In this document: positions 9,921-45,368 of the stretch, piece after piece
Numbering within the stretch: position 1 is the first letter of the stretch
How the letters are laid out: each line of letters begins with the position of its first letter
IMG/VR virus record: IMGVR_UViG_3300038393_001317
Reading direction: 5' to 3' (one strand)
DNA: 64,000 nucleotides
DNA from: a virus
The notes under the pieces: model-generated
What the model saw: the letters and a program-made list of their open reading frames with translations, nothing else
What the model was told of the DNA's origin: nothing
The model's database searches: none
Position numbers and translations under genes: made by a program

Positions 9921-9936
9921 GACGTGACGCCATACT
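9921..9936 (+). promoter_or_regulatory. GACGTGAC-GC-CATACT box on + strand, 6 nt before GTG 9943
   Basis: + strand GACGTGACGCCATACTGCTTACGTG; divergent partner of the 9898-9913 box. Confidence 0.5.
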
Positions 9937-9942
9937 GCTTAC

Positions 9943-30122: not shown

Positions 30123-30445
30123 AGCCCGGCGTCCGGGTCCTGGAGCGTGTAGACCTCGCCGTGCGCGTCGGTGACGGTCGGCCGGCCCAGGTTGAACGTG
30201 GCGTTCTGGCGGTACTCCTGGGCGGCCGCCTGCAGCGCGGCGTCCAGCGACGTGACGGCCTCGGGCGCCATGCGCGCCATGGCGTCGGGCTCCTCGTAGT
30301 CGCCGAGCAGGTGCAGGTTCTCGCGGGTGTAGAACTGCTTGAGGAGCGCCTTCACGAACCACCAGTAGGGGCCGAAATTGCGGTAGCGCCGCGGGTCCTG
30401 TTGCAGGAGCTGGAGCGTGCTTTCGGCGAATGCGCGGGCGTTCAT
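30116..30445 (-). CDS. hypothetical 109-aa protein
   Basis: ATGA overlap with the 2157-aa gene; normal composition (..FGPYWWFVKALLKQFYTRENLHLLGDYEEPD..). Confidence 0.7.
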   Translation of the reverse strand: MNARAFAESTLQLLQQDPRRYRNFGPYWWFVKALLKQFYTRENLHLLGDYEEPDAMARMAPEAVTSLDAALQAAAQEYRQNATFNLGRPTVTDAHGEVYTLQDPDAGLS

Positions 30446-33400
30446 TTGGCGGTCTCCAGGCTTTCCGCGATGAGCTCGCGCATGGTCTTTCCTGAGCTCG
30501 AGTGGTGACTCGTGTAGTAGCCGCCGTAGCCGCTGTACGGCGCGAACTTGCCGGTCAGGCCGTACTCGCGAAGCTGGTTGGGCGTCATGTCCAGGATGCC
30601 GGCCTGGTCGGCGGCATGGTGCAGGTGCTGGAGCAGGGCGCGCGAGTGGTTCCAGCCCTGCGCGAGCACGCGCACGGTCTCGGCGTCGATGTTCGCCTTG
30701 TGGTGCCGGCGGCCGCCCTCGAGCATCGCCTCCGCCAGGTCGTTGTGGCCGGACTGGAGCGCCATCTTCAACAGGGCGTTGTGCACGCTCAGGTCGTGCG
30801 CGCCGGCGATCGCGTAGTTCGAATGCTTCTTGTCGAACACCGCGGACATGGGCTTGCCCAGGTCGCCCAGGTGCCGCGCGCGCGCCCAGAGCATCGTGAG
30901 CGCTTCCTTCGGATAGCGCGCGGTCATGCCGGCGTCGCCGTACGACTCGTTGCGGCCCTCGACTTTCGCCAGCGGGTAGATGGCGTCGAACGCGTCCTTG
31001 ATCGAGCCGGCGCGGCGAATGCGCTGCATCTGCTCGGACTTCATGCGCTCCTTCGCCTCCTTCACCAGGGGCGCGTCGACGCCGTACGTGCGGGAGTCGC
31101 CGCCCAGGCGCTGGAGCGCCGCCTTGAACGGGTTAACGTGCTTCCCGTCGTAGCGCGTGCCGGCGTACTCGCGAGCCGCCGTGCTGTAGGACTTGTTGCG
31201 GCCGCGCTTGCCGCTCGACGCATGGAAGTGCGAGCCGATCTTCGCGCCGCGGCGCGCATCCATGAACGCCTGGATGGCCTTTTCCTTCGCGTCGCTGGTC
31301 GGGAGCAGGTAGTCGTGCGTGTCGTGCTTGTCGCGAGCGTGATAGCTTTCGACGGACTCGAGCGCGCCGGTCTCCTTGTTGATCATGGTCACGTCGCCGT
31401 ACGGCATCGTGAACTTGTAGTCCTTCATGCCCTGCTTGATGCGCTCCTGGAGCATGTCCTTGTTCTTGTCGATGACGGCCGTCGGCAGCGCCGCAATCTC
31501 CTCCCACTTCGAGATGCCGTCCAGCTTCTCGGCGGCCGCGGCTTCGAACTTCTCCTGGGCCTCCTTGCCTTCGGCTTCGGCGTCGTACTTGAACAGCGCG
31601 GCGTCCTTGAGCTCGTCCAGCTTGACGGTCGCTCGCTTGCCGCCCTCGAGGTCGGCGTAGCGGCGGATGGTCACGGTACCGTCGCGCATGTTGACGCCGG
31701 TGACCACGACCTTGCCCTCGCCGGGCATCTCGAGGCCGACGTTGGCCGTCAGCGTCGCGCCGGTCGCCGGGTGAATCAGCGTGTCGCTCGCGCTGTCCAG
31801 CGCGGACTTCGCCGGCCAGTACTTGTTGTTGAACAGCGACGTTTTCGCCGCCTCGATGCGATCGCGCAGCATCGTCGCCGACTTGGTTTCCTTGTTCTTG
31901 AGGGCACTGTAGCTGCGCGACAGGTCCACGAAGCGAACGAACTGCTTCTGGGCGTCGGCGCGCTGGTCGGCCTCGTACCGCTTCATGGCGGCCGACTTGT
32001 CCTCATCGAACTTCTTGCGGGCCTCGTCCGGGTCGGCCGACAGCATGATGCGCATGTCGTCCAGGGTCAGGTTGCCCTCGCGCGCCAGGTTCTCGACGCG
32101 ATCGCCGCCATTCCAGAGCAGGTCCTGCCAGTCGCGCTTGGCGTGCACGGCCTGGTAGCGGTAGCCGTCGAAACTGCCCTTCGCCAGGTACGAGTGAGTG
32201 CGCACCGACTCGTTCAGGTTGCCCTGGCGGATGCCGCGGCCCAGGCGCTGCTGCACCGTGGCCGGCTCCCAGGGAATGTCCAGCTCGTGAATGTCGGTAG
32301 TGGTCTTTTGCAGGTTCAGGCCCTCGGCCATCGTGACGTTGCCGATGACGACCTTGAGCTTGCCGGCGTTGAACTTGTCGGCGATGTTCTGGCGCTTGAC
32401 CGCGGAGCCCGCGACCTGGGCGTTGATGATGCCGATTTGCTCGCGCGGAATGCCGGCGTCGACCAGGGAGCGCACGATCTTGTCGTGCGTCGGCACCGAC
32501 TCGCAGAACACGATTTGGCCGCCCTCCTTCGCGCCGGCGACGACGTGCTTCGCCAGCTCCTCGAGCTTCGGCGATCGCGCGCCCTCGTGGCCCAGGAGCG
32601 CCAGGTCCAGGGCGGCCTTGCCCATCTTGTCCATGATGGAGAAGATGTGGCTGTCGCCCGTGGCGTCCTTCTTGCCAGACGACTCCTCGGCCAGCGCGCG
32701 CAGCTCGGCGTAGATGTTCTGTTGCGCCGGCGTCATGTCGACCAGGTGCGTCTGCTGGTCGCGCTCCGGCAGCTTGAGGCCCACGTCCTGCGCGGTGCGC
32801 CGGTCGATGAACCGGAACATGATTTCGCGCAGCTCGTCCAGGTTCTTGAACCCGGACACCACGAGCGCGTCCTCGATCGAGCCGTTCGTGCCCAGGACCT
32901 TGTCCTGCTGAAACTCGCAGAAGCGGTCCAGGAACTCCTCGCTGTTGCGGATGCCGATGTTCTCGAACGCCTCCGGCGCGATATGCGACAGCATCGAGTA
33001 AATCTCGAGCGGGCTGTTTTTCGTCGGCGTCGCCGTCAGGCCGTAGATGCCCTTGCCGTTGCCGCCGTTCTCGCGCACCCAGCGGGTCTTGAGGTTGAAG
33101 TCCAGGGCCCGGTTGGAGAGGCCCTGGCCGCCCAGGAACTTCGGGTTCTCGCCGAAGCGCGCGCGCGCCGCGTAGAGGTTTTTCTGGTGGTGCATCTCAT
33201 CGGCGATGAGCATGTCCACGCCCAGGTCATCGAACCAGATCGCGTCGGTGCGGTCGGCGAACTCGCGCTGCGCCAGGTGCTGCTCGAACTTCTCGCGGAT
33301 GGCCTTGCGCCGCTTGTCGCCGGCGTTGCCCAGGGCCTCGCCGCGCTGCACCCAGAAGTCCTCGCCGTAGTACTTCTCCTTGGTCTCCGGATTGAGGTCG

Positions 33401-36400
33401 ACCTCCTCGAACGCCGGCTCGCTGATGAACACAAAGTCGTAGTCGTTCTGCGTCAGGTCGTGGTACTTGCGCTTGCGCTCCGCGGCGTCGTCGTCGCGGC
33501 CGACCAGCTCGCCGGCCTTGTCGCGCGCGAAGTTGGCGCCGATCGTGAGCACGCGCGAGCCCGGGAACCAGACCTGGGACTCGGCGTACCAGTTGGCGAG
33601 CACCGACTTGGGCACGACGATGATCGGGCGCTTCGCGGTGCCCTGCATCTTCGCCATACGCGCCAGGAGCAGGCCGCCCAGCGTCTTGCCCAGGCCCACG
33701 TCGTCCGCGATGATGCCCTTGCCGTCCGCCAGGCTGCGGCGCAGCGACGACCAGCGCCAGGCGCGCACGTCGCGGTCCGTCGTGAGGCCCGGCACGTCCA
33801 TGGGCTCGTCGGAAAAGTCGCGCTGCACGAAGCCGCGGAACTTGCGGTTGTAAAGGTCCTCGACCGCATCGCGGTACTGCGATGCGCACAGCCACTGCTT
33901 GAACTCGTCGTTCAGGCGCTCGAGCTGAGGCAGGTCCTCCTCTTTGCGCACGCCGGTGCGATTGAGGTACTTGTCCAGGAGCTTCGACGTGCCGTACTCG
34001 TTGCCGCCGCGGATGATGTAGACGCCGTCGCGGAAGGTAATCTCGACGGGCTTCTGCTTGCGCGTCCACTCGTTGGCCTGGTCGCTGTCGTACTGCTTCC
34101 AGTTGAAGAACGCCTCGACCACGTGCAGCGGCAGGAAGGCCGAATTGAGCTGGACCTCCACGTCCTCCAGGGCCTTCGGGTCGATCGCCTTCTCGAGGCG
34201 CGACACCTGGTCGGCGAGCTTGTCCTGGAGCGCGTGACCGCCGGCGAGCGCCGCCTTCGCGGCATCCAGCTTCGGCCACAGCTCGCCCGTCAGGTACATG
34301 CTCATGGGCGTCCAGCGGCCCTCGCTGACCCACGCGTAGCGCGCATCCGCGGCGAGCTGGTCCTCGACTTCGGCCAGGTCCTTGCCCAGGCGCTCGGCGA
34401 GCTCGGCGGCCGTGAAGTCCGCGGACTTCGCCTCCAGCGCCATCGCTTCGGCGGTCACGTCGAAGCCGCCCTCGAGCGCGCGCGAGCCCTTGCCCAGGAC
34501 GGCGTCGGACAGCTCGCCCTGGCGGTTGACGGCGCCGACCAGGCGGAACAGGCGCTTGTCCGACGACGCCGCGGTCATCAGGTCCTTGTTGTCGGCCGGG
34601 ATGCCATGCTTCGCCACCCAGGCGCGCACGTCGGCCTCGAGCTGCGGCCGGTTCACGGCCTGGCCGTTGAACAGGCGGTCGATTTCCGCGGCGATCGGGC
34701 CGGCGTCGGCGATCGCCGGCGCCTGCATGAACTCGTCCACGCGATGCCAGCGCGGCGGGTCGCCCTGCAAGATGTACTGCACGCCGTCGACGGTTTTCAC
34801 GTCGCCGACCTTGGCCGTCGTGAGGTACGGACGATCGCGCTGCGCGGCGTTGCGCGCACGCTCGCGCGTCTCGTCGTTCGTGATCGTCTCGAGCACCTGG
34901 TCGACCGTCAGCTCGGTCGCCGGGCGCGACTCGCTGTCCGCCGTGAAGGCCGCCAGGGCCTCGGGCACACCGGCCATGGAGCCGTTGACGGTAATGTCGT
35001 TGCCCATGCCGGCCTGGGCGCGCCAGCCCGGGCCCATGGTGCCGAGAATGTTCGCGGCGCCGCGGCCGGTGAAGTACGAACCGGCGATGAACTCCTCGTC
35101 CCAGACGCCCAGCTTCTTGAGCGCGGCCTGGTCGTCGGCGACCTTGTCGTCCAGGACGTTGAGCGCCTGGCCGACGGCGTCGGGCCGCTTGCGGAAGTAC
35201 ACCACGTCGGTGGTCACTTCGGTATGCGAGTGCTCGAACGCGGTGTTCGGCATGCGCTGGGCGCCCAGGAACTCGGCGCGGCACAGCCAGCCCTGGCGCA
35301 TCGAGCGCGCGGAGCTCGAGTCCAGGATGCCGGTCGGCACGACCAGGGCGATGATGCCGCCGGGCTTCGCCTTGTCGATCGCGGTGTCCACGAAGTACTG
35401 CTCCGCGGTGCCGATTTGCTTCTTGTCGTCCTTCGCCAGCATGCCGCGCGGGCCGTACGGCGGGTTGCCGATCACCACGTCGAACTGGCGGTCGTCCATG
35501 GTTGCGAAGCGCTCGAACGCCGCGGTGTGCACCTCATGGCGATCGCCATGCAGCACGGTCGCGACGGTCGCGCTCACCGGGTCGAGCTCGACGCCGGTGA
35601 CCTTGAAGCCGGCGGGCGCGGTATGCAGGAACACGCCGGTGCCGCACGACGGCTCGAGGGCGTCGCCGTGCGTGATGCCCAGGGAGCCGATGACTTCCCA
35701 CATGGCGCGGGTTACGTCCGGGTCGGTGTAGTACTCGTTCAGGCTGTCGCCGCATCCGCCGTTGCCGCTGTACTGACGCATGAGCGCGCGGTCGGCGCCG
35801 TCGTACGGGCCGCCCTGGGCGATGCGTGCCGCCACCTGGTTGTTGATCGAGCGGCGGTCGGCCTTGCTGATGCCGGCCGCCACGCCGAAGGGGGCCGAGC
35901 GGTCGTGCGTGTCGATCGCCGGCGTCTCGGGTTCCGCGGGTTTCGTTTCAGCCGGCGGGGGATTCGTCTCGCCTTTGGGCGCTTTCGTTGCGCGCTTCGG
36001 CTTCTTGTCCTTGCCCTTGAAGTAGTCGCGGTACGCGCGGCCGAAATGCTTCTGGGCGTCCAGCTCCTCCTGGAGCGTCGTGCGCTGGCCCGACATGAGG
36101 TTCATGCGCAGGTCGCCGCTGCCGGCCAGAATCTCGTCCTTCTGCTTGCCCAGGCGATCGCGCAGGCCCGTCAGCGTCTCGAGGTGCCCGGCGAGCTCGT
36201 CCAGCTTGGCGGCGTGCTTCTTGAACTCCGCGCGATGCGCGCCGACGGCGCCCTCGAACTGGCCCTCGCGGACCACGTCCGGTACCGGCGCCTTGCGCTG
36301 CGACTCGAGGCCGGCTTCGGCCTCGCGCATGGCCGTCTCGGCCTTGTTCTTTTTCGAGTGCGTGCGCTCCATCTCGGCGCGCACCTTGCCCATCTCGTGG

Positions 36401-36915
36401 TAGTGGGTCTCGTGTTGCGTGCGGTGCAGCTCGAGCCAGCGCCGGCGATCGGCGTCGCTCAGGCCGCGCAGCGACTGGCGCGGCGTCGGCGCCGGGTGCT
36501 CGTCGTCGGTCGATCGCCGCTCCTCATCCCCAGTGTTTTCAACGACTTGCGCGGGTTCGGCCGCTGCAGGCGCAGGCGACGGCGTGAACATATCCGGCAC
36601 GGGCGCCGGCGCCGGCGCAACGCCCGGGAACTGCGCGGCGACCTGCTCGGGCGTGATGCCGCCCAGCTTCGCCATCTCGACGTACAGCCGCTGCTGGTGC
36701 GCCGCGGACATGGACGACAGCGTGCGCGTCATGCCGGCGACGCCGCCGTGCTTGTCGATGAACGCTTGCAGCCGGCCGTGATGCGCTGGGTGAACACCCT
36801 TCTTGCGCATCGCGGTGTGCTCCGGGATGACAACGCCGTCCTTGCGCACGTGCGTCGCCACTCGCACGGGCGTGTCGAACAGGGCCAGTTGGGATTTCTG
36901 GAAAAGGATGATCAT
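30442..36915 (-). CDS. 2157-aa N6-adenine-type (NPPY) DNA methyltransferase + SNF2/DExH helicase protein (P1 DarB-like architecture)
   Basis: Motif I LEPSCGTGVFL and motif IV VVIGNPPYGP (about nt 35176-35793). Helicase IIADDVGLGKT, MLIADEMHHQKN, LTATPTKNSPLE, QIVFCES...VIGNVTMAEGLNLQ...QQRLGRGIRQGN (about nt 32176-33783). Confidence 0.9.
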   Translation of the reverse strand: MIILFQKSQLALFDTPVRVATHVRKDGVVIPEHTAMRKKGVHPAHHGRLQAFIDKHGGVAGMTRTLSSMSAAHQQRLYVEMAKLGGITPEQVAAQFPGVAPAPAPVPDMFTPSPAPAAAEPAQVVENTGDEERRSTDDEHPAPTPRQSLRGLSDADRRRWLELHRTQHETHYHEMGKVRAEMERTHSKKNKAETAMREAEAGLESQRKAPVPDVVREGQFEGAVGAHRAEFKKHAAKLDELAGHLETLTGLRDRLGKQKDEILAGSGDLRMNLMSGQRTTLQEELDAQKHFGRAYRDYFKGKDKKPKRATKAPKGETNPPPAETKPAEPETPAIDTHDRSAPFGVAAGISKADRRSINNQVAARIAQGGPYDGADRALMRQYSGNGGCGDSLNEYYTDPDVTRAMWEVIGSLGITHGDALEPSCGTGVFLHTAPAGFKVTGVELDPVSATVATVLHGDRHEVHTAAFERFATMDDRQFDVVIGNPPYGPRGMLAKDDKKQIGTAEQYFVDTAIDKAKPGGIIALVVPTGILDSSSARSMRQGWLCRAEFLGAQRMPNTAFEHSHTEVTTDVVYFRKRPDAVGQALNVLDDKVADDQAALKKLGVWDEEFIAGSYFTGRGAANILGTMGPGWRAQAGMGNDITVNGSMAGVPEALAAFTADSESRPATELTVDQVLETITNDETRERARNAAQRDRPYLTTAKVGDVKTVDGVQYILQGDPPRWHRVDEFMQAPAIADAGPIAAEIDRLFNGQAVNRPQLEADVRAWVAKHGIPADNKDLMTAASSDKRLFRLVGAVNRQGELSDAVLGKGSRALEGGFDVTAEAMALEAKSADFTAAELAERLGKDLAEVEDQLAADARYAWVSEGRWTPMSMYLTGELWPKLDAAKAALAGGHALQDKLADQVSRLEKAIDPKALEDVEVQLNSAFLPLHVVEAFFNWKQYDSDQANEWTRKQKPVEITFRDGVYIIRGGNEYGTSKLLDKYLNRTGVRKEEDLPQLERLNDEFKQWLCASQYRDAVEDLYNRKFRGFVQRDFSDEPMDVPGLTTDRDVRAWRWSSLRRSLADGKGIIADDVGLGKTLGGLLLARMAKMQGTAKRPIIVVPKSVLANWYAESQVWFPGSRVLTIGANFARDKAGELVGRDDDAAERKRKYHDLTQNDYDFVFISEPAFEEVDLNPETKEKYYGEDFWVQRGEALGNAGDKRRKAIREKFEQHLAQREFADRTDAIWFDDLGVDMLIADEMHHQKNLYAARARFGENPKFLGGQGLSNRALDFNLKTRWVRENGGNGKGIYGLTATPTKNSPLEIYSMLSHIAPEAFENIGIRNSEEFLDRFCEFQQDKVLGTNGSIEDALVVSGFKNLDELREIMFRFIDRRTAQDVGLKLPERDQQTHLVDMTPAQQNIYAELRALAEESSGKKDATGDSHIFSIMDKMGKAALDLALLGHEGARSPKLEELAKHVVAGAKEGGQIVFCESVPTHDKIVRSLVDAGIPREQIGIINAQVAGSAVKRQNIADKFNAGKLKVVIGNVTMAEGLNLQKTTTDIHELDIPWEPATVQQRLGRGIRQGNLNESVRTHSYLAKGSFDGYRYQAVHAKRDWQDLLWNGGDRVENLAREGNLTLDDMRIMLSADPDEARKKFDEDKSAAMKRYEADQRADAQKQFVRFVDLSRSYSALKNKETKSATMLRDRIEAAKTSLFNNKYWPAKSALDSASDTLIHPATGATLTANVGLEMPGEGKVVVTGVNMRDGTVTIRRYADLEGGKRATVKLDELKDAALFKYDAEAEGKEAQEKFEAAAAEKLDGISKWEEIAALPTAVIDKNKDMLQERIKQGMKDYKFTMPYGDVTMINKETGALESVESYHARDKHDTHDYLLPTSDAKEKAIQAFMDARRGAKIGSHFHASSGKRGRNKSYSTAAREYAGTRYDGKHVNPFKAALQRLGGDSRTYGVDAPLVKEAKERMKSEQMQRIRRAGSIKDAFDAIYPLAKVEGRNESYGDAGMTARYPKEALTMLWARARHLGDLGKPMSAVFDKKHSNYAIAGAHDLSVHNALLKMALQSGHNDLAEAMLEGGRRHHKANIDAETVRVLAQGWNHSRALLQHLHHAADQAGILDMTPNQLREYGLTGKFAPYSGYGGYYTSHHSSSGKTMRELIAESLETAK

Positions 36916-36941: not shown

Positions 36942-36957
36942 ATCATCCTGTCACGAT
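36942..36957 (-). promoter_or_regulatory. ATCGTGAC-AG-GATGAT box variant, overlaps TGA of upstream gene
   Basis: - strand ATCGTGACAGGATGATCTAGG..., 34 nt before ATG 36915. Confidence 0.35.
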
Positions 36958-38846
36958 TGCGTGCGGTCGCTATCCTCGCGCTCGCCGGAGACCGACGCCC
37001 GGGCCTGCACCTCGGGGTCATCGAACCTGGCGGCCCAGATCGGCGCCAGGCGATCGAGGGCGCCGGCGTCGTGTTCGCGGAAACCGGCATCGAACGCGCC
37101 GTCGACGGCGTCCTCGGGACCGTTGTACGTGTAGTGCGCGCGCAACCCGCGCTCATCGAACACCTGGTAGCGGTACTTGCCCTCGTGGCTGGCGTCGGGC
37201 ATCAGCACGGCCCACTGCTTGCCGTTCTGGTGCCGCAGCTCGAAGCCGTCGCCGAACTGGCGGAAGTGCTCACGCACGGCCTCGCGCTGGGGATTGCCGC
37301 GGCGCTCGTACGGCGCCACGGGATGGCCCTCGCGGACGTAGCCGGCGACCATCGCCTTGAGCATGCCCGGCTTGTCGGCCGTCGCGCGGACCTTTTCCAC
37401 AAACTTGTCCACAGGCATGGTTACCACCTCTCCCAGGAACCGCGGGTCGTCGTAGTGCATGAGGTAGGCCGCGCGGGCCTGCTTTTCCGACAGGAAGCCG
37501 GCCATGACCTTGTCCTCGTCGTAGCGGCGCCAGGCCGACGCGGAAGGCGCGCCGTGCTTGCGTTGCCGCACGATGTAGACGTTCGGAGCGAAGGCCAGCG
37601 ACGGCCCCAGGTACACGTCGACCTCGTCGCCGTCGGCGCCCATCGAGTCCTCGAAGAACCCGTAGTCGTAGCGCATCTTGGTCGCGCCGCCAGGCCAGCG
37701 GCGGGTCGAGCCGGCCGGGTTTTCCACACGAACGGTGAGCCCGCGCCACTGCACGCGGGGCTTGAAGTACTCGCCCGACTTCGCCTGGGCGGCCGTCGGC
37801 GGCGTCCAGCCCTGAGCGAACAGGTCGACGTGGTGCACGGGCGCCGTGAAGAACCCGACCTGCTCGTCGCCGTCGTCCAGGATGGCCTTCGCCAGCACGG
37901 GCTCGAGGTCGCCGCCGTACTTCTTGGGCACGACGCGCGACAGAATCTCCTTGATCTTGTCGAACTTGGTCGGGCCCGACAGGCCGCCGAGCTCGTGCAG
38001 CTTCGAGCGCATCACGTTCGCGTCCGCGGTCACGCCCGGCACGTCGGAGACGTAGCACTCGCGAATGACCTCCATGCGCTCCTCGAACCGCGGCGAGCTC
38101 ACCGCGCCCAGGATATGCAGGCGGTCGGGCAGGTAGTCGCCGGACAGGAGCTCGCGCAGGTCCGCGCCGCTCATGGCGGCCGCGGCCGACGGGATGCCGA
38201 CGACGAAGTCGGTACCGCCCAGCGCCGCGGCGACGCGATCGTAGGCTTCGCGCTGGTTCAGCGGCCCGCGCTGGAAGGGGACGATGACCTCGTGTCCGGC
38301 CTCCATCCACTCCTGGATTTGCTCGGCGTGCTCCTCGATCAGCTCGAGCGTCGCGACCTGGTCGCCGATCACGTCCGGCGCCACCATCATGAGCAGGTTG
38401 CGGTACCGGTACGGCGTCTCCTCGCAGATGCGGCGCGACAGCTCCGAGTACTTCGCGAACACCGGCCCGAAGTTGATGCGCGCGTTCTCCGGCTTGCCGG
38501 CGCGCATCGCCGCCTTGAACGCATTGAAGGCGCCGGAGTCCACGAACACCGGCTTTTTCTCGCGGCGGATGGCTTCGGCGATGCGGTCCATGCCGAACGA
38601 CGACAGCTCGCCGATTTCCGTGCCCAGGCCGGCCGGCGACTCGATCGCCGCCTCCATGTCGCGCCGGCGACTCATGCCGGACGCGTACGGGAACGGCGTC
38701 ACCTGGTCGCCGCCGGTGGGCTCGCGCAGCTCGAGCGACACCTGGGCGGGCTTCGCTGACGGCCGCTTGTCGTCGTGCGCGCGCACCACGGTGCCGTCCT
38801 TCTTGGTGTAGCCCTTGACGTGGGCCTTCGCCAACACAATCAGCAT
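36951..38846 (-). CDS. 631-aa cargo-block protein: leader + possible TGT/DpdA-like barrel + inorganic-pyrophosphatase-like domain
   Basis: Start trimmed to ATG 38846 (AAGGA SD), giving MLIVLAKAHVKGYTKKDGTVVRAHDDKRP. PVFVDSGAFNAF resembles the DSGxF motif of transglycosylases. VENPAGSTRR...YDYGFFEDSMGADGDEVDVYLGP resembles the family I PPase YGF..DGDP.DV motif. Confidence 0.8.
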   Translation of the reverse strand: MLIVLAKAHVKGYTKKDGTVVRAHDDKRPSAKPAQVSLELREPTGGDQVTPFPYASGMSRRRDMEAAIESPAGLGTEIGELSSFGMDRIAEAIRREKKPVFVDSGAFNAFKAAMRAGKPENARINFGPVFAKYSELSRRICEETPYRYRNLLMMVAPDVIGDQVATLELIEEHAEQIQEWMEAGHEVIVPFQRGPLNQREAYDRVAAALGGTDFVVGIPSAAAAMSGADLRELLSGDYLPDRLHILGAVSSPRFEERMEVIRECYVSDVPGVTADANVMRSKLHELGGLSGPTKFDKIKEILSRVVPKKYGGDLEPVLAKAILDDGDEQVGFFTAPVHHVDLFAQGWTPPTAAQAKSGEYFKPRVQWRGLTVRVENPAGSTRRWPGGATKMRYDYGFFEDSMGADGDEVDVYLGPSLAFAPNVYIVRQRKHGAPSASAWRRYDEDKVMAGFLSEKQARAAYLMHYDDPRFLGEVVTMPVDKFVEKVRATADKPGMLKAMVAGYVREGHPVAPYERRGNPQREAVREHFRQFGDGFELRHQNGKQWAVLMPDASHEGKYRYQVFDERGLRAHYTYNGPEDAVDGAFDAGFREHDAGALDRLAPIWAARFDDPEVQARASVSGEREDSDRTQS

Positions 38847-40012
38847 GGTCCGTCCTTCTCGCCGAACGCGCCGGCCGGCAGCTTCCACTGGTCCGGCGGC
38901 ACGACGATCGGCCCCGTCCAGGTCTTGGAATTGCCCAGCGCCGCCACCTCGGGCTGGTCGATCGCCGCCTGGTACGCGCGGCCCTTGCCGGCGCGCGTCA
39001 TCAGGTCCTCCTTGCGGTGGATGGTCACGCCGAACTCGCGCTCGCGCTGCGCCACCTTGCCGGTCTCGTTCGGGTACAGCTTGTGGTTCGTCGCAATCTG
39101 ATTCGGGCCGGCGAAGATGCAATTCCGGCACGACAGGCGGCCGTAGCCGAGCTGATACGACGGGTGCGGCACGACGCCGTGCTTGCGCATCACGTCCCAC
39201 ACCTGGGCCTCACTCCAGCCGTGCACCGGCCGGTAGTGGTCGACGTGGCGCGTCGAGCTGTGCGCGCGATCGGGCTCGAACGCCTTGTAGTTCGCGCGGT
39301 TGGAGCTCTCCTCGGCGCGCTCGCCGGTCACGATCAGCGTGCGCTTGCCGGTGAACCGTTCCTGGTTCCGGACGGCCGCGGCCATCACGTCGACCTTGAG
39401 GGCGCCGCTGCACCAGCGCGTCGTGAGGTTGGCGGACTGCTGGGGGAATTTCCTGCGCGTGCCCAGCGGTCCATGTTCGCCGCCAGCGCGCCCGCGGGTT
39501 CCGTCCGGCTTCTCGAAGATGACCGGCGCGGTGCGCTGGTTCTCGCGCAGCATCTCGCGCTCGAAGCCGCCCTCGCGCCAGGAGAAGTAAATCGGGACGC
39601 CCAGGGCCTCCGCGATCTTCCGGCAGTAGTCTTTGGTGATCGGCCAGTCCATGAAGGACGCGCCCTCACCGTCAATGTCGTGATGGTGCAGCTCGATCTT
39701 CGCCGGCGGCACGCCGTTCTCGAGGAGCGCCAGGACGCAGGCGATGCTGTCCTTGCCGCCGCTGAATCCGACCAGGACCTTGTCGTAGCTGGCGAGGTCG
39801 GGCCCGGGCGCGATCGCGACCGCGGAGCCGTGAGCTGAGATGGAAAACACCTTGGGCGCATGCTCCTCGAACAGGTCGCGCTGCTTCGCCTGGTCGGCGG
39901 TCACGGCCGGCGGCGGCCGCGGCGTCGGGCGCTTGTCCTGGTGCGGCGCCACCGCGGTGCCGTCGCGCTTGACGTAGCCCTTCACGTGGGTCTTGAGCAG
40001 GAGCACGGTCAT
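38840..40012 (-). CDS. PP-loop ATPase / PAPS-reductase-like protein with shared leader
   Basis: Start trimmed to ATG 40012 (ATGA overlap with MuF stop), giving MTVLLLKTHVKGYVKRDGTAVAPHQDKRP. PP-loop VLVGFSGGKDSIA. Later TTRWCSGALK and SCRNCIF. Confidence 0.8.
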   Translation of the reverse strand: MTVLLLKTHVKGYVKRDGTAVAPHQDKRPTPRPPPAVTADQAKQRDLFEEHAPKVFSISAHGSAVAIAPGPDLASYDKVLVGFSGGKDSIACVLALLENGVPPAKIELHHHDIDGEGASFMDWPITKDYCRKIAEALGVPIYFSWREGGFEREMLRENQRTAPVIFEKPDGTRGRAGGEHGPLGTRRKFPQQSANLTTRWCSGALKVDVMAAAVRNQERFTGKRTLIVTGERAEESSNRANYKAFEPDRAHSSTRHVDHYRPVHGWSEAQVWDVMRKHGVVPHPSYQLGYGRLSCRNCIFAGPNQIATNHKLYPNETGKVAQREREFGVTIHRKEDLMTRAGKGRAYQAAIDQPEVAALGNSKTWTGPIVVPPDQWKLPAGAFGEKDGPC

Positions 40013-41157
40013 TTGGACCCCAGCGTGTTGCGCAGCCACTCGGCGAACTTCGGGTCGTCGCCGGCCTGCTCGGCGATCGTCGGAACCCAGCGGCCGCGGC
40101 AGTGCGGGTGCTGCGTTCCTGCAGCCGGCCACCACAGCTCGTGCGGCTCGCGCTCGATCAACAGGCCGCCCAGGCGCTTGTGCAGCGCCGCGCTCCGGCC
40201 GACGTTCGTCTTGCCGGGCCAAATGTCGGTCTGGCCGTTCTTGTGAATGTCGCCGGCGCCGACGACGTTCATGACCCGCCCGTCAATCGTGCGGCAAAAC
40301 TTACACGCGCCCTTGTACTGCTCGATGCGCTTCACGCGCGCGCCGTGCGGCAGGCTGGCGATGTAGCCCTGGTTCTGGGCCTCGACGGTTTCGGTCACGG
40401 CGATGCGACGCCAGTCGCGATTGAGCTGCGCGAACTGGTCGCCGAGCTTGGTCTCGAGCGCGCCGGCGAGCGGAGCGTCGCCCAGGTGCACGGCATTGAC
40501 GTGTTGTGCGATCGTCTGGCGCATGCGGTGCCGCACGTCGTTCGAGACCTCGCGCACGTTCTCGGCCGTGCTGGCGATCGCGTACTCGAGGCCGGCGCGC
40601 TGCGGCCGCGTGAACGGGAACAGGTCGATCGCCGCCTGGGCGGTGAGCGGCAGCGCCGCGATGACCTGGTCGGCCTGGGCCGCGGTGACCTGGTCCATGT
40701 TGGCCTGCACGCGGCCCATGATCGTCGCGCGCGTCGCCAGCCACTCGGCCTCCGCGCGCATGTCGTCCGCCGGCAGGTAGCGCTGCGTCAGCCAGTCGAC
40801 CATCATCATGTGGTCCTCGAGGGTCCACTCGCCAGGCGGCAGGTGCTCGAGGTACAGCTTCACCAGGTCCAGCTCGCCGCGCGACCAGCGCTCCATGACG
40901 CCGGCGGGCCGCGCGACGCGGTCCATACCGGGTCGATGCCGGGCGCCGTCGGACCACGCCTTGAGCTCGCGACGGAACGCCTCGAGTCGATCGAGACCGC
41001 GTTGCGTGAACAGCTCCACCAGGCGCGCGACGAACGGGTTGTCGACGGGGAGCCAAATGTCCTCGCCGTTGTGGTCGTGGATGGCCTTGTAGATCAGGTT
41101 GAGCGCCATGTCCGTCTGTTCGGCGGATAGCGGCTCGAGGTCGACAAACAGGCCCAT
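40009..41157 (-). CDS. MuF / SPP1 gp7-like minor head protein
   Basis: RIAVTETVEAQNQGY, CKFCRTIDGRV and GTQHPHCRGRW match the Mu F-family pattern as I know it. Confidence 0.75.
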   Translation of the reverse strand: MGLFVDLEPLSAEQTDMALNLIYKAIHDHNGEDIWLPVDNPFVARLVELFTQRGLDRLEAFRRELKAWSDGARHRPGMDRVARPAGVMERWSRGELDLVKLYLEHLPPGEWTLEDHMMMVDWLTQRYLPADDMRAEAEWLATRATIMGRVQANMDQVTAAQADQVIAALPLTAQAAIDLFPFTRPQRAGLEYAIASTAENVREVSNDVRHRMRQTIAQHVNAVHLGDAPLAGALETKLGDQFAQLNRDWRRIAVTETVEAQNQGYIASLPHGARVKRIEQYKGACKFCRTIDGRVMNVVGAGDIHKNGQTDIWPGKTNVGRSAALHKRLGGLLIEREPHELWWPAAGTQHPHCRGRWVPTIAEQAGDDPKFAEWLRNTLGSK

Positions 41158-41163
41158 CTAGCG

Positions 41164-41179
41164 ATCATCGAGTCACGAC
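41164..41179 (-). promoter_or_regulatory. GTCGTGAC-TC-GATGAT box, 6 nt before ATG 41157
   Basis: - strand TTTTCGTTTGTCGTGACTCGATGATCGCTAGATG, directly after a terminator. Confidence 0.55.
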
Positions 41180-41182
41180 AAA

Positions 41183-41212
41183 CGAAAAGCCGGAGCAGTC
41201 GCCCGCTCCGGC
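41183..41212 (-). terminator. intrinsic terminator
   Basis: - strand GCCGGAGC-GGGCGACT-GCTCCGGC followed by TTTTCGTTT. Confidence 0.65.
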
Positions 41213-41387
41213 CTTCCGGTTAGGCCCCCGTCTACCGCGAGCCCCGAAGCCCCGCAGGAAAGGACGCCGCCTACCCCTAGACGACGCGATCGTGACCTAA
41301 CTGCGGCCTTTATTTCCCCAATAGAAGCCGCTCAGGGTCGCAACAGCCAAGTGATGAACACCCGCCACGCTTCCGGCTTGCGCCGGC
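41183..41387 (-). ncRNA. candidate ~190-200-nt ncRNA (box at 41394-41409 to terminator at 41183-41212)
   Basis: Promoter-like box and terminator bracket a segment with no ORF of 60 codons or more on either strand. GC-rich hairpins. No family recognised. Confidence 0.35.
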
Positions 41388-41393
41388 GCGCGT

Positions 41394-41409
41394 AGTGTGG
41401 GCTCACGAC
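41394..41409 (-). promoter_or_regulatory. GTCGTGAG-CC-CACACT box variant with no ORF downstream
   Basis: - strand GCGGCGTTTTTTCGTCGTGAGCCCACACTACGCG. Confidence 0.4.
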
Positions 41410-41410
41410 G

Positions 41411-41434
41411 AAAAAACGCCGCGGCGTTGCGGCG
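41411..41434 (-). terminator. intrinsic terminator
   Basis: - strand CGCCGC-AACGCC-GCGGCG followed by TTTTTT. Confidence 0.55.
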
Positions 41435-41513
41435 CGCGGCGTGCTTCGGTGTCAGGGGAGGCGAAACCCGGGGAGCTCACATGGGGCAGTGGACTTCAAC
41501 TTAGGAGGAGACA

Positions 41514-41675
41514 ATGGCCGGTGCCGGCGCCAACCCGACACACTCCCCGGGGTTCTCGAACTCTCACGACAGCGGCCGCCTGGCGACTGTCGTGAGAGCT
41601 CGCACTCTCACGGCCGGGTACGTCTCCGGCGCGGGGCTTTCACCGCTCGTGATGCCTGTCGCCAGGTTCCCCTAG
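41514..41675 (+). CDS. possible 53-codon + strand ORF with ideal RBS (below track cutoff)
   Basis: AGGAGG-AGACA-ATG giving MAGAGANPTHSPGFSNSHDSGRLATVVRARTLTAGYVSGAGLSPLVMPVARFP, with fairly G/C-rich third positions. It spans the palindromes and has no recognisable + promoter. Confidence 0.2.
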   Translation: MAGAGANPTHSPGFSNSHDSGRLATVVRARTLTAGYVSGAGLSPLVMPVARFP

Positions 41676-41869
41676 CGCACTGGCTTTGTCGGAATCAACC
41701 GGAACGGGCGCCAACTAGCCCTCGGAGTCATCCGACTCGCCACCGCGACAGGTTCGGCAGGGAGCCGGAATCACCTCGCATTTTTGGCAGAGCCTCGGGA
41801 CCGTTCGCTGTCGGTATGCGTCCCCGATGAAGTTAGACCCGGCTGTCACCCCGGGCCCCTCGCGCTTTC

Positions 41870-42115
41870 CTACTCGGCCGCCGAAGCGACCGGAGCTTTG
41901 TCTTTTTCGGCGCCGTCGGCCGGCTCACCCATCAGCTCCTTGGCTTCCGCCTCGCTGATTTCGTGACCCCAGTCGACGCCCTTGTCCTTGCTGCCCATGT
42001 AGGGCACGAACTCGCCCTTCGACGGGCTCCAAACCTCGACCGGGTTCCCGCGAGCGGGACCGCGGAACAGCGCGCCCTCGTTCTCGATGTAGACCATGTT
42101 CGGGTTCTCGTTCAC
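41870..42115 (-). CDS. 81-aa protein translationally coupled to the RelA/SpoT-like gene (possible immunity/antitoxin)
   Basis: GTG start in a GTGA overlap with the upstream stop (42112-42115); acidic, normal composition. Confidence 0.6.
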   Translation of the reverse strand: MNENPNMVYIENEGALFRGPARGNPVEVWSPSKGEFVPYMGSKDKGVDWGHEISEAEAKELMGEPADGAEKDKAPVASAAE

Positions 42116-43614
42116 TTTGCTTTCCTAACCAACATGATCATTTTCGATGAAGTCTGGGATTTTTGCAAGGGCCGCTCGTCGCTTTTTTGCGACGCGCCCG
42201 GCTTGCCGTCCTTGCCGGCGGGTTTCGCCTCCGGCTGAGCGCCGGCCGTGGCCTGGGCCCAGGCTTTGCCGTACAGGTCCTTCTGCTCTTTCAGCGCCTC
42301 GTAGAACTTGGTGTGGTCCTCGTCGGACCAGGCGTCCGTGGGCGCCGGCTCGTTGTACTTCGCGCGCAGCGATCGACACACGCCGTAGGCATGGTGACCG
42401 TGGTCTTTCGCCAGGGTCATCGCCTTCACATGCACCTGGAGCTCGGCGAGCATGCCGTTGGGCAGCTTCACGATCGTCATTGCGTCGCGGTAGCCCTCGC
42501 TGGTCGGCTCCGCGAACCGGTCCTTGGGTTGCTGCGCCAGCTCGACGCCGGACTCTTTCAGCTTGGCGAGCGCCGTTTTCACGTCCGCCATCGTCGGCAC
42601 GCTGATCGTCGCGCGGACAATGTCGCGGAGCTGCGACCAGTCGCCGTCGTAGTCGGCCATGACCTTTTCCTTCGCGCGCGACTCGCTTTTCAGCGGCGCC
42701 ACGAACACGAAGCCCTGCTCGCTGGCCCAGTCCTCGGGCGTGAGGTCGTCGGGCCGCTTGCCCTCGACCAGGCCCATGGACTTCGCGATGCCGGACAGTT
42801 GCTCCTTGAACTGGTTCAGGCCCTCGGTGCCGTGCTTGACCAGGTCCTCCCAGGTCTTGTGCGGCTGGTTCACCTTCTTGGGCAGCTTCGCGGTCTCGGC
42901 CTGGTCGAACACGGCGTCGCCCTTCGCCGGCGGCTCACCGGCGTCCGCGGCCGGCCGCGCCTCGTGCGGCGAGCTCGTCGGCTTGCCGCCGCCTTCCCAG
43001 TGGTGCGTCACGGCGCCGTGGCGGACGCGATGCTCGCCGCCGGCGTCGTCCTTCACGGTGACGCCATGCTGGCCGGCGGCCGTCACCTGGCCGTGCCCGC
43101 GGTGCGCGCCGTTCACGAAGCCGACATGCCGGCCGGGTTGCGCCGGCGCGGCCGCCTGGTCGGTGCTGACCCAGCGCTGCGTCTGCACGCCGTTCTTGTC
43201 GGTGACCTGCTTCTTGACCAGGCCCGGTCGGTTCGCGAGCGGCCCGCCCTTGAACAGGAGCACGGGGCGGCGCGGGTCAAAGGCTTTCGCGATCACGAGC
43301 GGGTCCTCTTTTGCCTCGTTGGGCGTTGCGACGTAGCGGCGCCGGCCGGCCTGGTCCTGGAGGAGCATGCCGTCCTCGCCCTGGTCGATGATTTGGCCGC
43401 GGATGGCGACGCGCGACTTGTGGCCCAGGACCTTGTCCCAGGTGATCTTGTGGTGGGCGCCGTCAATCTCGCCGGTGACGCCATGCTTGCCGTGCGCGGC
43501 GACGCGGCACGTGCACGGCTGGCCCTCGTGGTGGACGTACAGCTCGTCGCCGACCTCCACACCAGGCCGGCGCTCCGGCTCCTTCTGGGTCTTGCCCGGG
43601 GCCTTCGGCGTCAT
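42112..43614 (-). CDS. 500-aa protein with C-terminal RelA/SpoT (RSH) nucleotidyltransferase-like domain
   Basis: PLKSESRAKEKV...LRDIVRATISV...SEGYRDAMTIVKLPNGMLAELQVHVKAMTLAKDHGHHAY (about nt 42280-42852). N-terminus has two HG(K/Q)HGVTG-type repeats. ATGA overlap with portal stop. Confidence 0.75.
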   Translation of the reverse strand: MTPKAPGKTQKEPERRPGVEVGDELYVHHEGQPCTCRVAAHGKHGVTGEIDGAHHKITWDKVLGHKSRVAIRGQIIDQGEDGMLLQDQAGRRRYVATPNEAKEDPLVIAKAFDPRRPVLLFKGGPLANRPGLVKKQVTDKNGVQTQRWVSTDQAAAPAQPGRHVGFVNGAHRGHGQVTAAGQHGVTVKDDAGGEHRVRHGAVTHHWEGGGKPTSSPHEARPAADAGEPPAKGDAVFDQAETAKLPKKVNQPHKTWEDLVKHGTEGLNQFKEQLSGIAKSMGLVEGKRPDDLTPEDWASEQGFVFVAPLKSESRAKEKVMADYDGDWSQLRDIVRATISVPTMADVKTALAKLKESGVELAQQPKDRFAEPTSEGYRDAMTIVKLPNGMLAELQVHVKAMTLAKDHGHHAYGVCRSLRAKYNEPAPTDAWSDEDHTKFYEALKEQKDLYGKAWAQATAGAQPEAKPAGKDGKPGASQKSDERPLQKSQTSSKMIMLVRKAK

Positions 43615-45368
43615 GGTTCGATGCGCAGCACCGGCAGGCCGAACGACTTCTGGAGGCTGGCCTTCTCGTCGTCGCTCGGGCCGGCGCCGCCCTCCTCGAG
43701 GTCCTGGTCGTCATCGCCGCCGGCGTCCTGGCCGCCAGGCTGACCGAAGTCCTCCTCGCCGCCGTCGCCGAAGTCCTGGCCGCCCATCGCAGACGGGTCG
43801 GACTGGCCGGGCATGCCGAAGTCCTGCTCCTGCGGCATGGCCTCTTGCTGCCAGGCGGCGACGAGCGCGGGATTGAGCGGGGCATCGCCCCAGGTTTCCT
43901 TGATCGGCTTGCGGCCGTCCTCGGCGCGCACCTCGTTGACCGTCATCGTCTGCTTCTTGCGGTCCCAGACGGTGGCCTCGTCCTCCTCGTCCAGGCCGGT
44001 CCACACGAACTCGGCGTCCTCGTTGAAGTCGGCGACGATGTAGTCGGTGAACAGGTTCTGGAAGTACGACAGCAGCGGGCGCAGGCCCTTGTCCTTCGAG
44101 CTGGCGATCTTCTCCTCGGTGTCGGAGCCCGACAGGCTCGAGGTGCCGTTGGTGAACGACTCGAAGTTGATTTCGTCCGGCGCCATGCCGTAGATCGCGC
44201 AGATGATCGACGCGAGAAACGTCATCCACTTGCCGAACATCAGCTCGGACGCCGGCTCGCCGAAACTCTCGAATTTCGCCGCGGACTCCTGGTCCTTCGA
44301 CACCATCACGGGCAGCGCATGGGCATTGTTGATGCCCTTGACCATGCCGTTCCAGTAGCGCTTGAACGCCTTAATGTCGTCGTCGCTGTAGGCGCCGAAC
44401 AGGTTCAGCACGCCGCGCGGCATCGCGTTCGAGTCGAAGAACTTGACGTTGTACGTGAACGCGTTGAGGAAGCCGGTCACCACGCGAATCAGCAGCTCGG
44501 TCTCGCCCATGCCGTAGCCGCCCGACAGCACGTCGGTGCGCGGGTTGCGCGGCACGTAGACCAGGTCGTCGTACGTGTACGCGCTGCGAATGTTCCCCTG
44601 CACGAGCTGGATAGCGAAAATCTCGTCGTCGCCACGGTAGCCCTGCTCGGTGCACAGGCGGATGGTCGCGCCGTCGACCGCGTAGATGCCGTCGATGCCC
44701 AGGCTGCGATCGCGCTTGAACTCGGTCTCGATCGGCGCGGCGTCCATGGTGAGCGAGTCGCGGACCAGCTTCGCCATGAACGTGCTCATGTCGTCGCGCT
44801 TCAAGCGCTGACGCATGCGCGGCTTGAACTCGAAGCCGCCGTGCGAGAAGAACTTCTCGAGGAGCTGCAGGGACTTGGTCTGGTCCTCGCCGAGCTCCGC
44901 CTTTTTGTCGCGCATGCTGACGCGGAAGCCCGGGCCCTTGCCGTCGGCCTGCGGCCGGCAAAAGCGCTGCACCTGGCGGATGCGCGTCATGATCACGGCG
45001 TTCAGGATGGGCGTCGACTCCACCATCTGGCGCATGGCGTCGAACGAGAACACGCCCTGGCGCTCGTAGTAGTCGCCCATCACGCCGATTTGCACGTCGT
45101 CCAGGTAGACCGACTGCATGCCGGGCTTGCGATCGCGCGCCGCGGCCGACGGGAGCTGGATGACGTTGTTCTTGCGCAACGCCTTGGTCATCGCCTGGTC
45201 CTCGTATCCGTCCTGGATGAACGTGAGGAGCGGCGCCAGGCGCTCGAGGTTGATCAATTCCGCGGAGACCTGGCCCATGGCCCCTTTTTGGAGCTGCGTC
45301 ATTGCGTCCTGACGCTCGTCGGCCGGTGCACGCGGGTCGTGGGCGACGCTGAGGGCGGAGTCCTTCAT
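43611..45368 (-). CDS. portal protein
   Basis: 585 aa at the head of the morphogenesis operon, with an acidic D/E/G-rich C-terminus. Size and position are typical. Box upstream. Confidence 0.75.
   Translation of the reverse strand: MKDSALSVAHDPRAPADERQDAMTQLQKGAMGQVSAELINLERLAPLLTFIQDGYEDQAMTKALRKNNVIQLPSAAARDRKPGMQSVYLDDVQIGVMGDYYERQGVFSFDAMRQMVESTPILNAVIMTRIRQVQRFCRPQADGKGPGFRVSMRDKKAELGEDQTKSLQLLEKFFSHGGFEFKPRMRQRLKRDDMSTFMAKLVRDSLTMDAAPIETEFKRDRSLGIDGIYAVDGATIRLCTEQGYRGDDEIFAIQLVQGNIRSAYTYDDLVYVPRNPRTDVLSGGYGMGETELLIRVVTGFLNAFTYNVKFFDSNAMPRGVLNLFGAYSDDDIKAFKRYWNGMVKGINNAHALPVMVSKDQESAAKFESFGEPASELMFGKWMTFLASIICAIYGMAPDEINFESFTNGTSSLSGSDTEEKIASSKDKGLRPLLSYFQNLFTDYIVADFNEDAEFVWTGLDEEDEATVWDRKKQTMTVNEVRAEDGRKPIKETWGDAPLNPALVAAWQQEAMPQEQDFGMPGQSDPSAMGGQDFGDGGEEDFGQPGGQDAGGDDDQDLEEGGAGPSDDEKASLQKSFGLPVLRIEP

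Follow-up and report, generated by a model that had tools for sequence, protein, structure and literature searches.

A predicted Tas1/Apk-like alarmone synthetase and its candidate immunity partner in a phage head operon

Introduction

What purpose might an alarmone synthetase-like protein serve in the head operon of a phage, directly behind the portal gene, and what is the small reading frame that overlaps its end? The question is raised by the IMG/VR virus record IMGVR_UViG_3300038393_001317, from which a stretch of 64,000 nt, referred to below as the window, was analysed. On the minus strand of the window, a gene with an ATG start (42112..43614) codes for a 500-aa protein containing a RelA/SpoT-homologue (RSH) domain, and is followed by a small partner open reading frame (ORF; 41870..42115, minus strand). 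The analysis reveals an RSH synthetase fold with an intact active site, encoded in a coupled operon, as part of a protein in which carrier and warhead are modular and the warhead is accompanied by partner genes of its own. The interpretation that we favour with moderate confidence, from sequence comparisons and structural models, is that the two genes would encode a capsid-packaged, injected effector resembling a (pp)pApp synthetase, together with an immunity protein that binds it directly.

Results

The synthetase domain

Residues 235-460 of the 500-aa protein (42235..42912, minus strand) constitute an RSH synthetase domain of the Tas1/Apk-like type. The PF04607 profile matches residues 311-407 (E 6.2e-6, 26.9 bits, profile positions 6-102 of 113), and 44 of 56 aligned relatives match it at E<=1e-3, the best of them at 1.4e-8. 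Among PDB sequences the best match is Tas1 (6OX6; phmmer E 5e-6), and a profile of the 56 relatives retrieves the same protein at E 3.3e-9; S. aureus Rel, RelP, RelA, RelSeq and an exported synthetase follow with E-values of 1e-3 to 1e-2. The AlphaFold model of the protein has a mean predicted local distance difference test (pLDDT) score of 83, which exceeds 94 across residues 235-460. When this model is compared with known structures by Foldseek, Tas1 again comes first (E 1.5e-8), followed by about 40 structures of small alarmone synthetases (SAS) and Rel enzymes, including RelQ, RelP and Rel; nearly all of the 49 matches at E<=1e-3 are RSH synthetases, and CapRel ranks 45th (E 5e-4). The PF04607 match is the only Pfam signal of the 500-aa protein, and neither it nor the 81-aa protein encoded by the small ORF has a match in PHROGs, PADLOC or NCBIfam. 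The initial annotation of this DNA had recognized a RelA/SpoT domain from a series of conserved peptide blocks; the translation contains these around residues 306-410, and the domain itself is recovered by profile, by structure and by its conserved catalytic residues.

The residues K309, K317, D331, R334, G374, Y375, E391, Q393, K397 and H407 are invariant in the 56 sequences. According to their roles in the family, K309 and K317 are the ATP-triphosphate lysines, D331 is the Mg2+ aspartate, G374-Y375 belong to the acceptor loop and E391-x-Q393 represents the syn4 motif, and all of these positions align with their counterparts in Tas1 and RelSeq (HMMER). Judged by sequence, the RSH domain is real, its active site is intact and it looks active. 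A catalytically dead RSH fold, kept for a structural role or as an internal protein of the head, would be in keeping with the borderline Pfam score and with the position of the gene in the head module. The donor-site, Mg2+ and acceptor-loop residues are nevertheless invariant across 56 sequences that share 44-67% identity, and dedicated antidote genes accompany the domain, which renders a dead fold extremely unlikely.

The type of synthetase can be approached through the signatures described for Apk2, namely R-x-T in syn2 (vs A-x-R), G-x-N in syn3 (vs S-x-H) and x-H in syn4 (vs I-R). These motifs are said to separate adenosine from guanosine 3'-pyrophosphokinases, yet swapping them does not convert specificity (PMC12226406). 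The Apk-type syn2 is kept in the present family (R334 in all 56 sequences, T336 in 54), as is the Apk-type syn4 (H395 in 49 of 56). By sequence and by model, the domain is classed as Tas1/Apk-like rather than CapRel/FaRel2-like, and the earlier description of the protein as resembling a toxic SAS (toxSAS) is supported and, as to type, refined: Tas1 is the first structural match and CapRel only the 45th. The most likely product, as far as the signatures indicate, would be (pp)pApp.

An alternative activity, already raised in the initial annotation, is the pyrophosphorylation of tRNA 3'-CCA ends, as in FaRel2, CapRel and PhRel2-like enzymes, whereby the warhead would stop translation on entry into the cell. 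Members of the toxSYNTH fold are known with either activity (PMC11782079), and the product is not readable from the sequence. Yet the closest proteins, both in sequence and in structure, are Tas1 and the nucleotide-using SAS, with CapRel far lower, and the domain carries the Apk-type syn2 and syn4 signatures. The Mesh1-like hydrolase that is linked to the gene in relatives (see below) also speaks against a tRNA target; this evidence is weak, because small alarmone hydrolase (SAH) enzymes also neutralise tRNA-targeting toxSAS (PMC7229694). Taken together, an attack on tRNA is distinctly improbable.

The 500-aa protein has at least 183 cluster homologues of 44-67% identity, nearly all of them metagenomic and many on contigs of 90-98 kb. 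The sole cultured member is gp034 of the Bordetella phage vB_BbrM_PHB04 (53% identity), which is labelled RelA/SpoT domain-containing in UniRef. The corresponding gene set of this phage is gp034-gp033-gp032, in which gp032 is an HD_4 hydrolase that follows the small ORF. A profile search of 1.8 billion representatives retrieved 4687 proteins at E<=1e-3, 461 of them at E<=1e-30, with lengths that range from 177 to 2130 aa.

The carrier module and its exchangeable warheads

The N-terminal part of the protein (residues 1-225; 42940..43614, minus strand) forms a carrier module made of two five-strand beta-barrel repeats (43414..43545 and 43000..43128, minus strand) with beta-hairpins between them. 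Both barrels are modelled with a pLDDT of about 90-95 and share the same five-strand layout, and the two repeat segments (residues 17-70 vs 158-212) align by BLASTP at E 0.01, with 10 of 22 residues identical. The first copy contains HGKHGVTGEIDGAHHKI (residues 41-57) and the second GQHGVTVKDDAGGEHRV (residues 191-207). Two repeats of the form HG(K/Q)HGVTG..H(K/R)(I/V) had been proposed for this region; the duplication stands, whereas the motif describes the copies only approximately. The module has no match in Pfam, PHROGs or NCBIfam, and shows no similarity to MuF in Pfam or PHROGs. In longer close homologues an extra domain of 130-150 aa, which is ParB-like in one protein (P0072), is located between the N-terminal module and the RSH domain.

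The modularity of the protein is most evident in three sister phages (loci L036, L037 and L038). In the same slot after the portal, these phages code for a protein with the same N-terminal module and with a Zeta toxin kinase domain (PF06414, E 2e-24) as its C-terminal half (L036 6001..7817, L037 3186..4990, L038 643..2447). The identity of the module to that of the window is 54% over residues 3-261 in L036 and 37-38% in L037 and L038. The kinship of these phages is also reflected in their portals (59-62% identical) and in the presence of the same NinI-type phosphatase; among the three, only L036 has the MuF-like gene (58% identical) and the same InPase gene. Each Zeta gene is overlapped by a downstream small ORF of 70 or 57 aa, which is not homologous to the small ORF of the window and presumably encodes the immunity or antidote protein of the Zeta toxin, and the hydrolase gene is absent from all three loci. 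Since the same module bears either RSH or Zeta in the same slot, it acts as a carrier on which toxin warheads can be exchanged. In turn, the small ORF and the hydrolase belong with the RSH warhead and not with the carrier or the locus, because both are gone when the warhead is Zeta. On the basis of these comparisons, a non-MuF double-barrel carrier with RSH/Zeta swapping appears to be new, and it is missed by current annotation libraries.

The exchange of warheads also bears on a non-toxic role, in which a synthetase of (p)ppGpp or another alarmone would adjust transcription and translation in the host, and the small protein would serve as an assembly chaperone or a packaging adaptor. Alarmone-like reprogramming has indeed been proposed for the RelA/SpoT domains of polyvalent proteins (PMC5512222), exported Tas1 relatives produce both (p)ppGpp and (p)ppApp (PMC12691689), and the syn3 motif of the present family is neither Apk-like nor Rel-like. 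However, what replaces RSH on the carrier is a member of an established toxin family, and the small gene changes in step; an adaptor of the carrier would be expected to stay, yet the small gene follows the warhead. Most relatives also possess a hydrolase antidote, and the orphan and composite copies of the small protein in bacteria, described below, are hard to square with a phage assembly chaperone. A purely regulatory enzyme is therefore rather unlikely.

The small partner protein

The small protein is characterized by the core M(V/I)YIENEGALFRGPARG.P.EVW....FVPY.G..K..DWG..ISE.EA..LM. and its gene adjoins the RSH domain in 29 of 33 phage loci. Of the remaining four, three stop at the RSH gene itself or have a copy that the search missed owing to its divergence, which leaves L033 as the only one of the 33 without a detected homologue. 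The gene is kept beside RSH in three different carrier contexts, and three RSH subtypes pair one-to-one with three subtypes of the small protein. Where RSH is fused to the portal, the small gene runs on the opposite strand towards the fusion gene, and the two stop codons overlap. The association of the two is thus independent of co-transcription, as they are convergent in these loci and yet adjacent. The same loci led us to reject the small ORF as a frameshift extension of the RSH protein. The suggestion that the small ORF is the cognate partner of the warhead is thereby strengthened: it tracks RSH across carriers, co-varies with it by subtype and is swapped out when Zeta takes its place. By these sequence relationships the small protein is a candidate for the direct-binding immunity factor of the RSH domain.

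In the AlphaFold model (pLDDT 76), the small protein has four short strands with a helix at its C-terminus. None of Pfam, PHROGs, PADLOC and NCBIfam gives a match, and the sequence has no Cys/His zinc motif. Kinship with Tis1 or pZFD was considered and rejected, in view of the lack of a structural neighbour (best Foldseek E 1.1) and of a sequence relative in the PDB. The protein appears to represent a new candidate immunity family, without known relatives and missed by the annotation libraries. The ORF was initially described as 81 aa in length; the ORF itself is confirmed, whereas its start is ambiguous. The GTG at 42115, which gives 81 aa, lies six codons upstream of the ATG at 42097, is preceded by AGGA at a distance of eight bases, and recurs in several loci. 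It thus has the better Shine-Dalgarno sequence, yet in every called homologue the first residue is the Met of M(V/I)YIENEG, which corresponds to the ATG at 42097 and to a protein of 75 aa.

Copies of the small protein in bacteria

A scan of bacteria, with one genome per species, disclosed nine loci with the small protein (L039-L047), in Caldimonas, Hydrogenophaga, Bradyrhizobium, Microvirga, Methylobacterium and four metagenome-assembled genomes (MAGs); the Methylobacterium copy of the gene has an internal stop. All nine are orphans, with no homologue of the RSH, portal, MuF-like, hydrolase or InPase genes within 10 kb. Some of them are composite genes. The 110-aa ORF of Hydrogenophaga (L043 9854..10186) combines a homologue of the small ORF from the Zeta locus L036 (53% identity over 32 aa, E 2.6e-9) with the core of the RSH partner. 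In Microvirga (L044 about 9840..10201) it is the small ORF of the Zeta locus L037 (44% over 52 aa, E 7e-10) that is joined to the RSH-partner core, and a Proteobacteria MAG (L042 9992..10396) exhibits a tandem fusion of two RSH-partner cores of different subtypes. The Hydrogenophaga gene is placed after a 2238-aa DUF4011-helicase-REase-DUF3320 protein, and that of Bradyrhizobium between a resolvase and a 1646-aa NACHT (STAND) protein; these two orphans thus have neighbours of defence type.

Fused and orphan immunity genes are typical of polymorphic toxin systems. Because the partners of both RSH and Zeta occur in fused and orphan copies of this sort, both small proteins would be immunity factors, and this is the strongest indirect evidence for such a function. 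The bacterial copies suggest that bacteria may use the small proteins against phage effectors. A broader proposal, tentative and on balance doubtful, would be that the swappable double-barrel module is a new capsid-delivery domain alongside MuF and, jointly, that the small protein founds a new immunity family against phage-injected effectors which has been captured by bacteria. If this were true, the bacterial copies would neutralise the effectors injected by PHB04-like phages, which would make the injected alarmone synthetase a requirement for infection. The result would be an arms race of effectors and immunity proteins between phage and host, as in type VI secretion.

The head operon

The RSH gene is surrounded by a long minus-strand operon, which extends from the portal through a DarB-like giant in a window with a G+C content of 64-73%. 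The portal protein (585 aa; 43611..45368, minus strand; PF04860 E 3.4e-22, phrog_12 E 1e-43) is 59-64% identical to the portals at related loci. Its stop and the start of the RSH gene share the bases ATGA (...CCATGACG...), and the stop of the RSH gene shares GTGA with the start of the small ORF (...GCAAAGTGAACGAG...), overlaps which couple the portal, the RSH gene and the small ORF. The initial annotation had this arrangement right, in that both ORFs are positioned on the minus strand as it had placed them, the portal gene is directly upstream, the small ORF overlaps the RSH stop by GTGA and the RSH domain is not fused to MuF. The MuF-like head-morphogenesis protein (382 aa) is the product of a separate gene (40009..41157, minus strand), with weak matches to Phage_min_cap2 (E 0.065) and to the head-morphogenesis families phrog_758/4728 (E 0.02-0.05), and it is 50-64% identical to the gene product at the same position in all related loci.

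The 500-aa ORF and the small ORF are real genes and not chance ORFs of GC-rich DNA, since the former has 183 or more cluster homologues and the latter is conserved at the protein level in 29 of the 33 loci. A plus-strand ORF (42163..43743, 526 aa) was considered as a gene and rejected as the antisense shadow of the conserved gene in DNA of 68% GC. Together with another plus-strand ORF (36957..38759, 600 aa), it is antisense to conserved minus-strand genes and has no gene support; long antisense ORFs such as these may arise by chance, as is expected in DNA of 68% GC.

The overlapping bicistronic layout of toxin and small partner is also that of an intracellular toxSAS toxin-antitoxin (TA) pair, or of a module for abortive infection or superinfection exclusion such as PhRel-ATphRel of phage Phrann or CapRel, which would act in the phage-carrying cell, with no delivery by the virion. 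Both toxSAS pairs and the FaRel operon, composed of an SAH, a toxSAS and a small antitoxin, are known (PMC7229694), and CapRel is found among the structural matches (E 5e-4). The RSH gene is, however, translationally coupled to the portal in a late head operon, and elsewhere this domain forms part of portal, MuF and polyvalent virion proteins. Moreover, no PADLOC defence model was matched, the partner has no similarity to pZFD, PAD1, Tis1 or PanA, and the best matches of the warhead are Tas1 and small alarmone synthetases rather than the tRNA-targeting toxSAS. We consider it quite improbable that the pair acts within the phage-carrying cell in this manner.

The genes that follow in the operon code for effector-like proteins. 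The stop of the MuF-like gene shares ATGA with the start of the next gene (38840..40012, minus strand), which codes for a PAPS-reductase/DndC/BrxP-like protein (390 aa from ATG 40012; PF01507 E 2e-10). This PAPS-reductase-fold protein matches the BrxP (PADLOC, E 7e-16), DndC and SspD defence models in addition to the phage family phrog_424 (E 4e-36), and could be a DNA-modification or anti-defence enzyme riding as cargo. It is followed by an InPase-domain protein (631 aa from ATG 38846; 36951..38846, minus strand; PF18823 InPase E 1e-30), and by the DarB-like giant (2157 aa; 30442..36915, minus strand), which contains the domains N6_Mtase, Eco57I, SNF2-rel_dom and Helicase_C. The window also codes for a second giant (1525 aa; 24935..29512, minus strand) with a ResIII/SNF2 helicase. 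Both giants resemble the DarB-type antirestriction proteins of P1, and the DarB-like giant serves as context that marks the operon as a candidate virion-borne effector module.

A leader of ~25 aa, (M)hhLLFK(S/T/A)HVKGYT(R/K)KDGT.V.(P/A)H.DKR, opens both the PAPS-reductase-like and the InPase proteins, and copies of the motif are located at 39950..39997, 38784..38831, 37317..37361 and 36800..36915 (minus strand). The N-terminus of the PAPS-reductase-like protein is the leader MTVLLLKTHVKGYVKRDGTAVAPHQDKR, the InPase protein has one internal copy in addition to its N-terminal leader, and the N-terminus of the DarB-like giant, MIILFQKS...HVRKDGVVIPEH, is a looser copy. The leader also opens the Mesh1-like hydrolases of related loci (L001, L002, L008, L015, L017, L019, L020 and L022). 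The C-terminal tail of the RSH protein (residues 461-500; 42115..42234, minus strand; pLDDT <50) ends with ...KMIMLVRKAK, which resembles the first half of the leader of its neighbours, and the family consensus at this end is L.KS.....MI.L. The leader may be a capsid-targeting or processing signal common to the cargo proteins.

The hydrolase and its absence from the window

In about 22 related loci, including PHB04 with its gp032, the small ORF is followed by a gene for an HD_4 protein. The protein matches human and fly Mesh1 (E 5e-36 to 3e-30) and the hydrolase domains of Rel/SpoT, and Aph1 weakly (E 6e-4). The gene is absent from the window, from its 90%-identical relative L003 and from L026. 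The window instead has a non-coding gap of 712 bp (41158..41869, minus strand), which contains no minus-strand ORF of at least 50 aa, no tRNA and no Rfam family. A tblastn search for a relic of the HD gene, both in the gap and in the entire 64-kb window, returned the short leader motif only and no HD domain. This lineage appears to have lost the hydrolase, at least within the 64-kb window, which is a new feature of the group; the gene may be located in the other 34 kb of the source contig.

Within the gap, a non-coding element of about 200 nt (41160..41365, minus strand) is ~97% identical to L003, a level of conservation above that of the flanking genes. Its predicted fold is strong (minimum free energy -100 kcal/mol, z -3.4), and a terminator-like hairpin of 16 bp (41218..41183) forms its end, just upstream of the MuF-like start. 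The element occupies the position of the hydrolase gene of the relatives.

Architectures in other phages

Domain architectures were read from Pfam scans of a sample of the homologues, and comprise Phage_portal_3 with RSH, portal with InPase and RSH, RSH behind ART-PolyVal, and RSH with Acb1; the RSH domain also ends a 2130-aa RadC/SNF2-helicase giant. In the IMG/VR loci L027-L031, RSH is the C-terminal third of portal proteins of 866-904 aa. Portal-RSH fusions are found at L027 5967..8681 and L031 6033..8633 and in the proteins P0221, P0226 and P0240, and their frequent occurrence is new here. Portals of this type measure 790-1030 aa, and a low-complexity linker separates their portal part from the C-terminal RSH domain; P0240 contains InPase plus RSH. 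The linker carries a motif, E..HPR...G.F, which recurs in the next head protein. At L033, a 29%-identical RSH copy is fused to MuF and represents a true MuF-RSH fusion. When the search by Foldseek is directed to viral models, polyvalent proteins of 1000-1300 aa come first, and the polyvalent homologues include P0151, P0171, P0177, P0240 and P0072.

Discussion

The favoured interpretation, that of an injected effector with a dedicated immunity protein, can be formulated as a sequence of events. A large (about 95-98 kb) PHB04-like myovirus would produce a two-part effector, consisting of the double-barrel carrier and a Tas1/Apk-type warhead, late in infection from the translationally coupled operon of the portal. 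The effector would be loaded into the capsid near the portal, along with the PAPS-reductase-like, InPase and DarB-like methylase-helicase cargo, and would enter the next host with the DNA. There, the warhead would pyrophosphorylate an adenine nucleotide at its 3'-OH with ATP as the donor, most likely forming (pp)pApp and draining ATP, so that the metabolism of the host or its ATP-dependent defences would be crippled for a time. The small protein would bind and silence the warhead in the producing cell, as IapK does with Apk2 and Tis1 with Tas1, and most relatives would possess a second antidote, the Mesh1-like small alarmone hydrolase, which acts on the product. Packaging and injection of phage polyvalent and MuF toxins is itself a prediction (PMC5512222, PMC10083569), and InPase, PAPS-reductase-like and DarB-like domains have likewise been predicted to be packaged and injected (PMC5512222).

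Several observations weigh against this interpretation. The PF04607 score of 26.9 bits falls 0.1 below the curated gathering cut-off of 27.0. The syn3 signature G-x-N is absent, as the window has GYR-D377-A-M379 and the family has D-(L/I)-M in 38 and D-x-N in 17 of the 56 sequences. Production of (pp)pApp is uncertain from the signatures, both for this reason and because the motifs alone do not set specificity (PMC12226406). The small protein is without a PDB relative by fold or by sequence, and the logic of two antidotes is incomplete, because the hydrolase is absent from the window. The portal fusions do not imply injection, since a domain covalently attached to the portal would not obviously exit the capsid. 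Finally, the benefit that a phage would derive from draining ATP in a cell that it needs is not obvious. In spite of these points, an injected effector with its own immunity protein accounts for the warhead swap and the orphan copies better than any of the rival explanations.

The role of phage MuF-Apk2 in physiology is described as unknown in the papers on this toxin (PMC10083569, PMC12226406). The PHB04-like family offers a cleaner test bed, with a cultured phage and a natural swap of RSH and Zeta on one carrier in one slot. Its lineages with and without the hydrolase, and the orphan and composite copies in bacteria, bear on the role of Tas1-like toxins in phages.

Comparison with known systems

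Phage head-module RSH toxins with immunity genes are of a kind already known from MuF-Apk2/IapK/Aph1, as are RelA/SpoT domains in polyvalent proteins. The features that are new are the non-MuF carrier, the candidate immunity family, the loss of the hydrolase, the portal fusions and the orphan and composite copies in bacteria. In the MuF-Apk2 triad, the gene order is apk2-iapK-aph1, in which IapK acts by occluding the acceptor site and Aph1 by hydrolysing the product (PMC12226406), and the toxins occur in temperate phages of S. pneumoniae, M. haemolytica, P. multocida and B. caccae (PMC10083569, PMC12226406). Both systems have a head-module gene with a C-terminal Tas1-like RSH domain, then a small gene and then, in most relatives of the window, a hydrolase. 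They differ in that the carrier is here a double beta-barrel module and MuF a separate gene, that the small protein is without similarity to Tis1 or to a solved structure, and that the hydrolase of the relatives, which is missing in the window, is nearer to Mesh1 (E 5e-36) than to Aph1 (E 6e-4). In contrast to the MuF-toxin prophages, the present group of phages resembles the 94-kb Bordetella myovirus PHB04.

The Tas1 (Apk1)-Tis1 pair of Pseudomonas aeruginosa (6OX6), in which Tas1 is a (p)ppApp synthetase effector of type VI secretion, provides the best match in sequence, profile and structure, with the same variants of the PxKS, DxxRxT, GY and ExQ motifs, and Tas1 is likewise a delivered toxin encoded beside its immunity protein. 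Its delivery depends, however, on PAAR and the type VI secretion system rather than on a phage capsid, the identity of the domains is ~22%, and Tis1 is unrelated to the small ORF. In FaRel (PMC7229694, PMC11782079), a (pp)pApp-type RSH toxin is also controlled by a hydrolase and a specific small protein, yet FaRel is a chromosomal TA system without a delivery domain, and its AT2faRel is Tis1-like plus pZFD, whereas the present partner is neither. More generally, the partner falls into none of the antitoxin classes of the toxSAS modules (CapRel, FaRel, FaRel2, PhRel and PhRel2), namely the pZFD/PAD1, Tis1-like, PanA and SAH classes. The polyvalent and Dar-type effectors (PMC5512222) share the neighbourhood of portal, MuF, InPase and DarB-like genes, and homologous RSH domains are found inside polyvalent proteins of 900-2100 aa with ART-PolyVal, Acb1 and RadC-helicase. 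In contrast to these, the protein of the window combines one recognisable effector domain with a dedicated partner gene.

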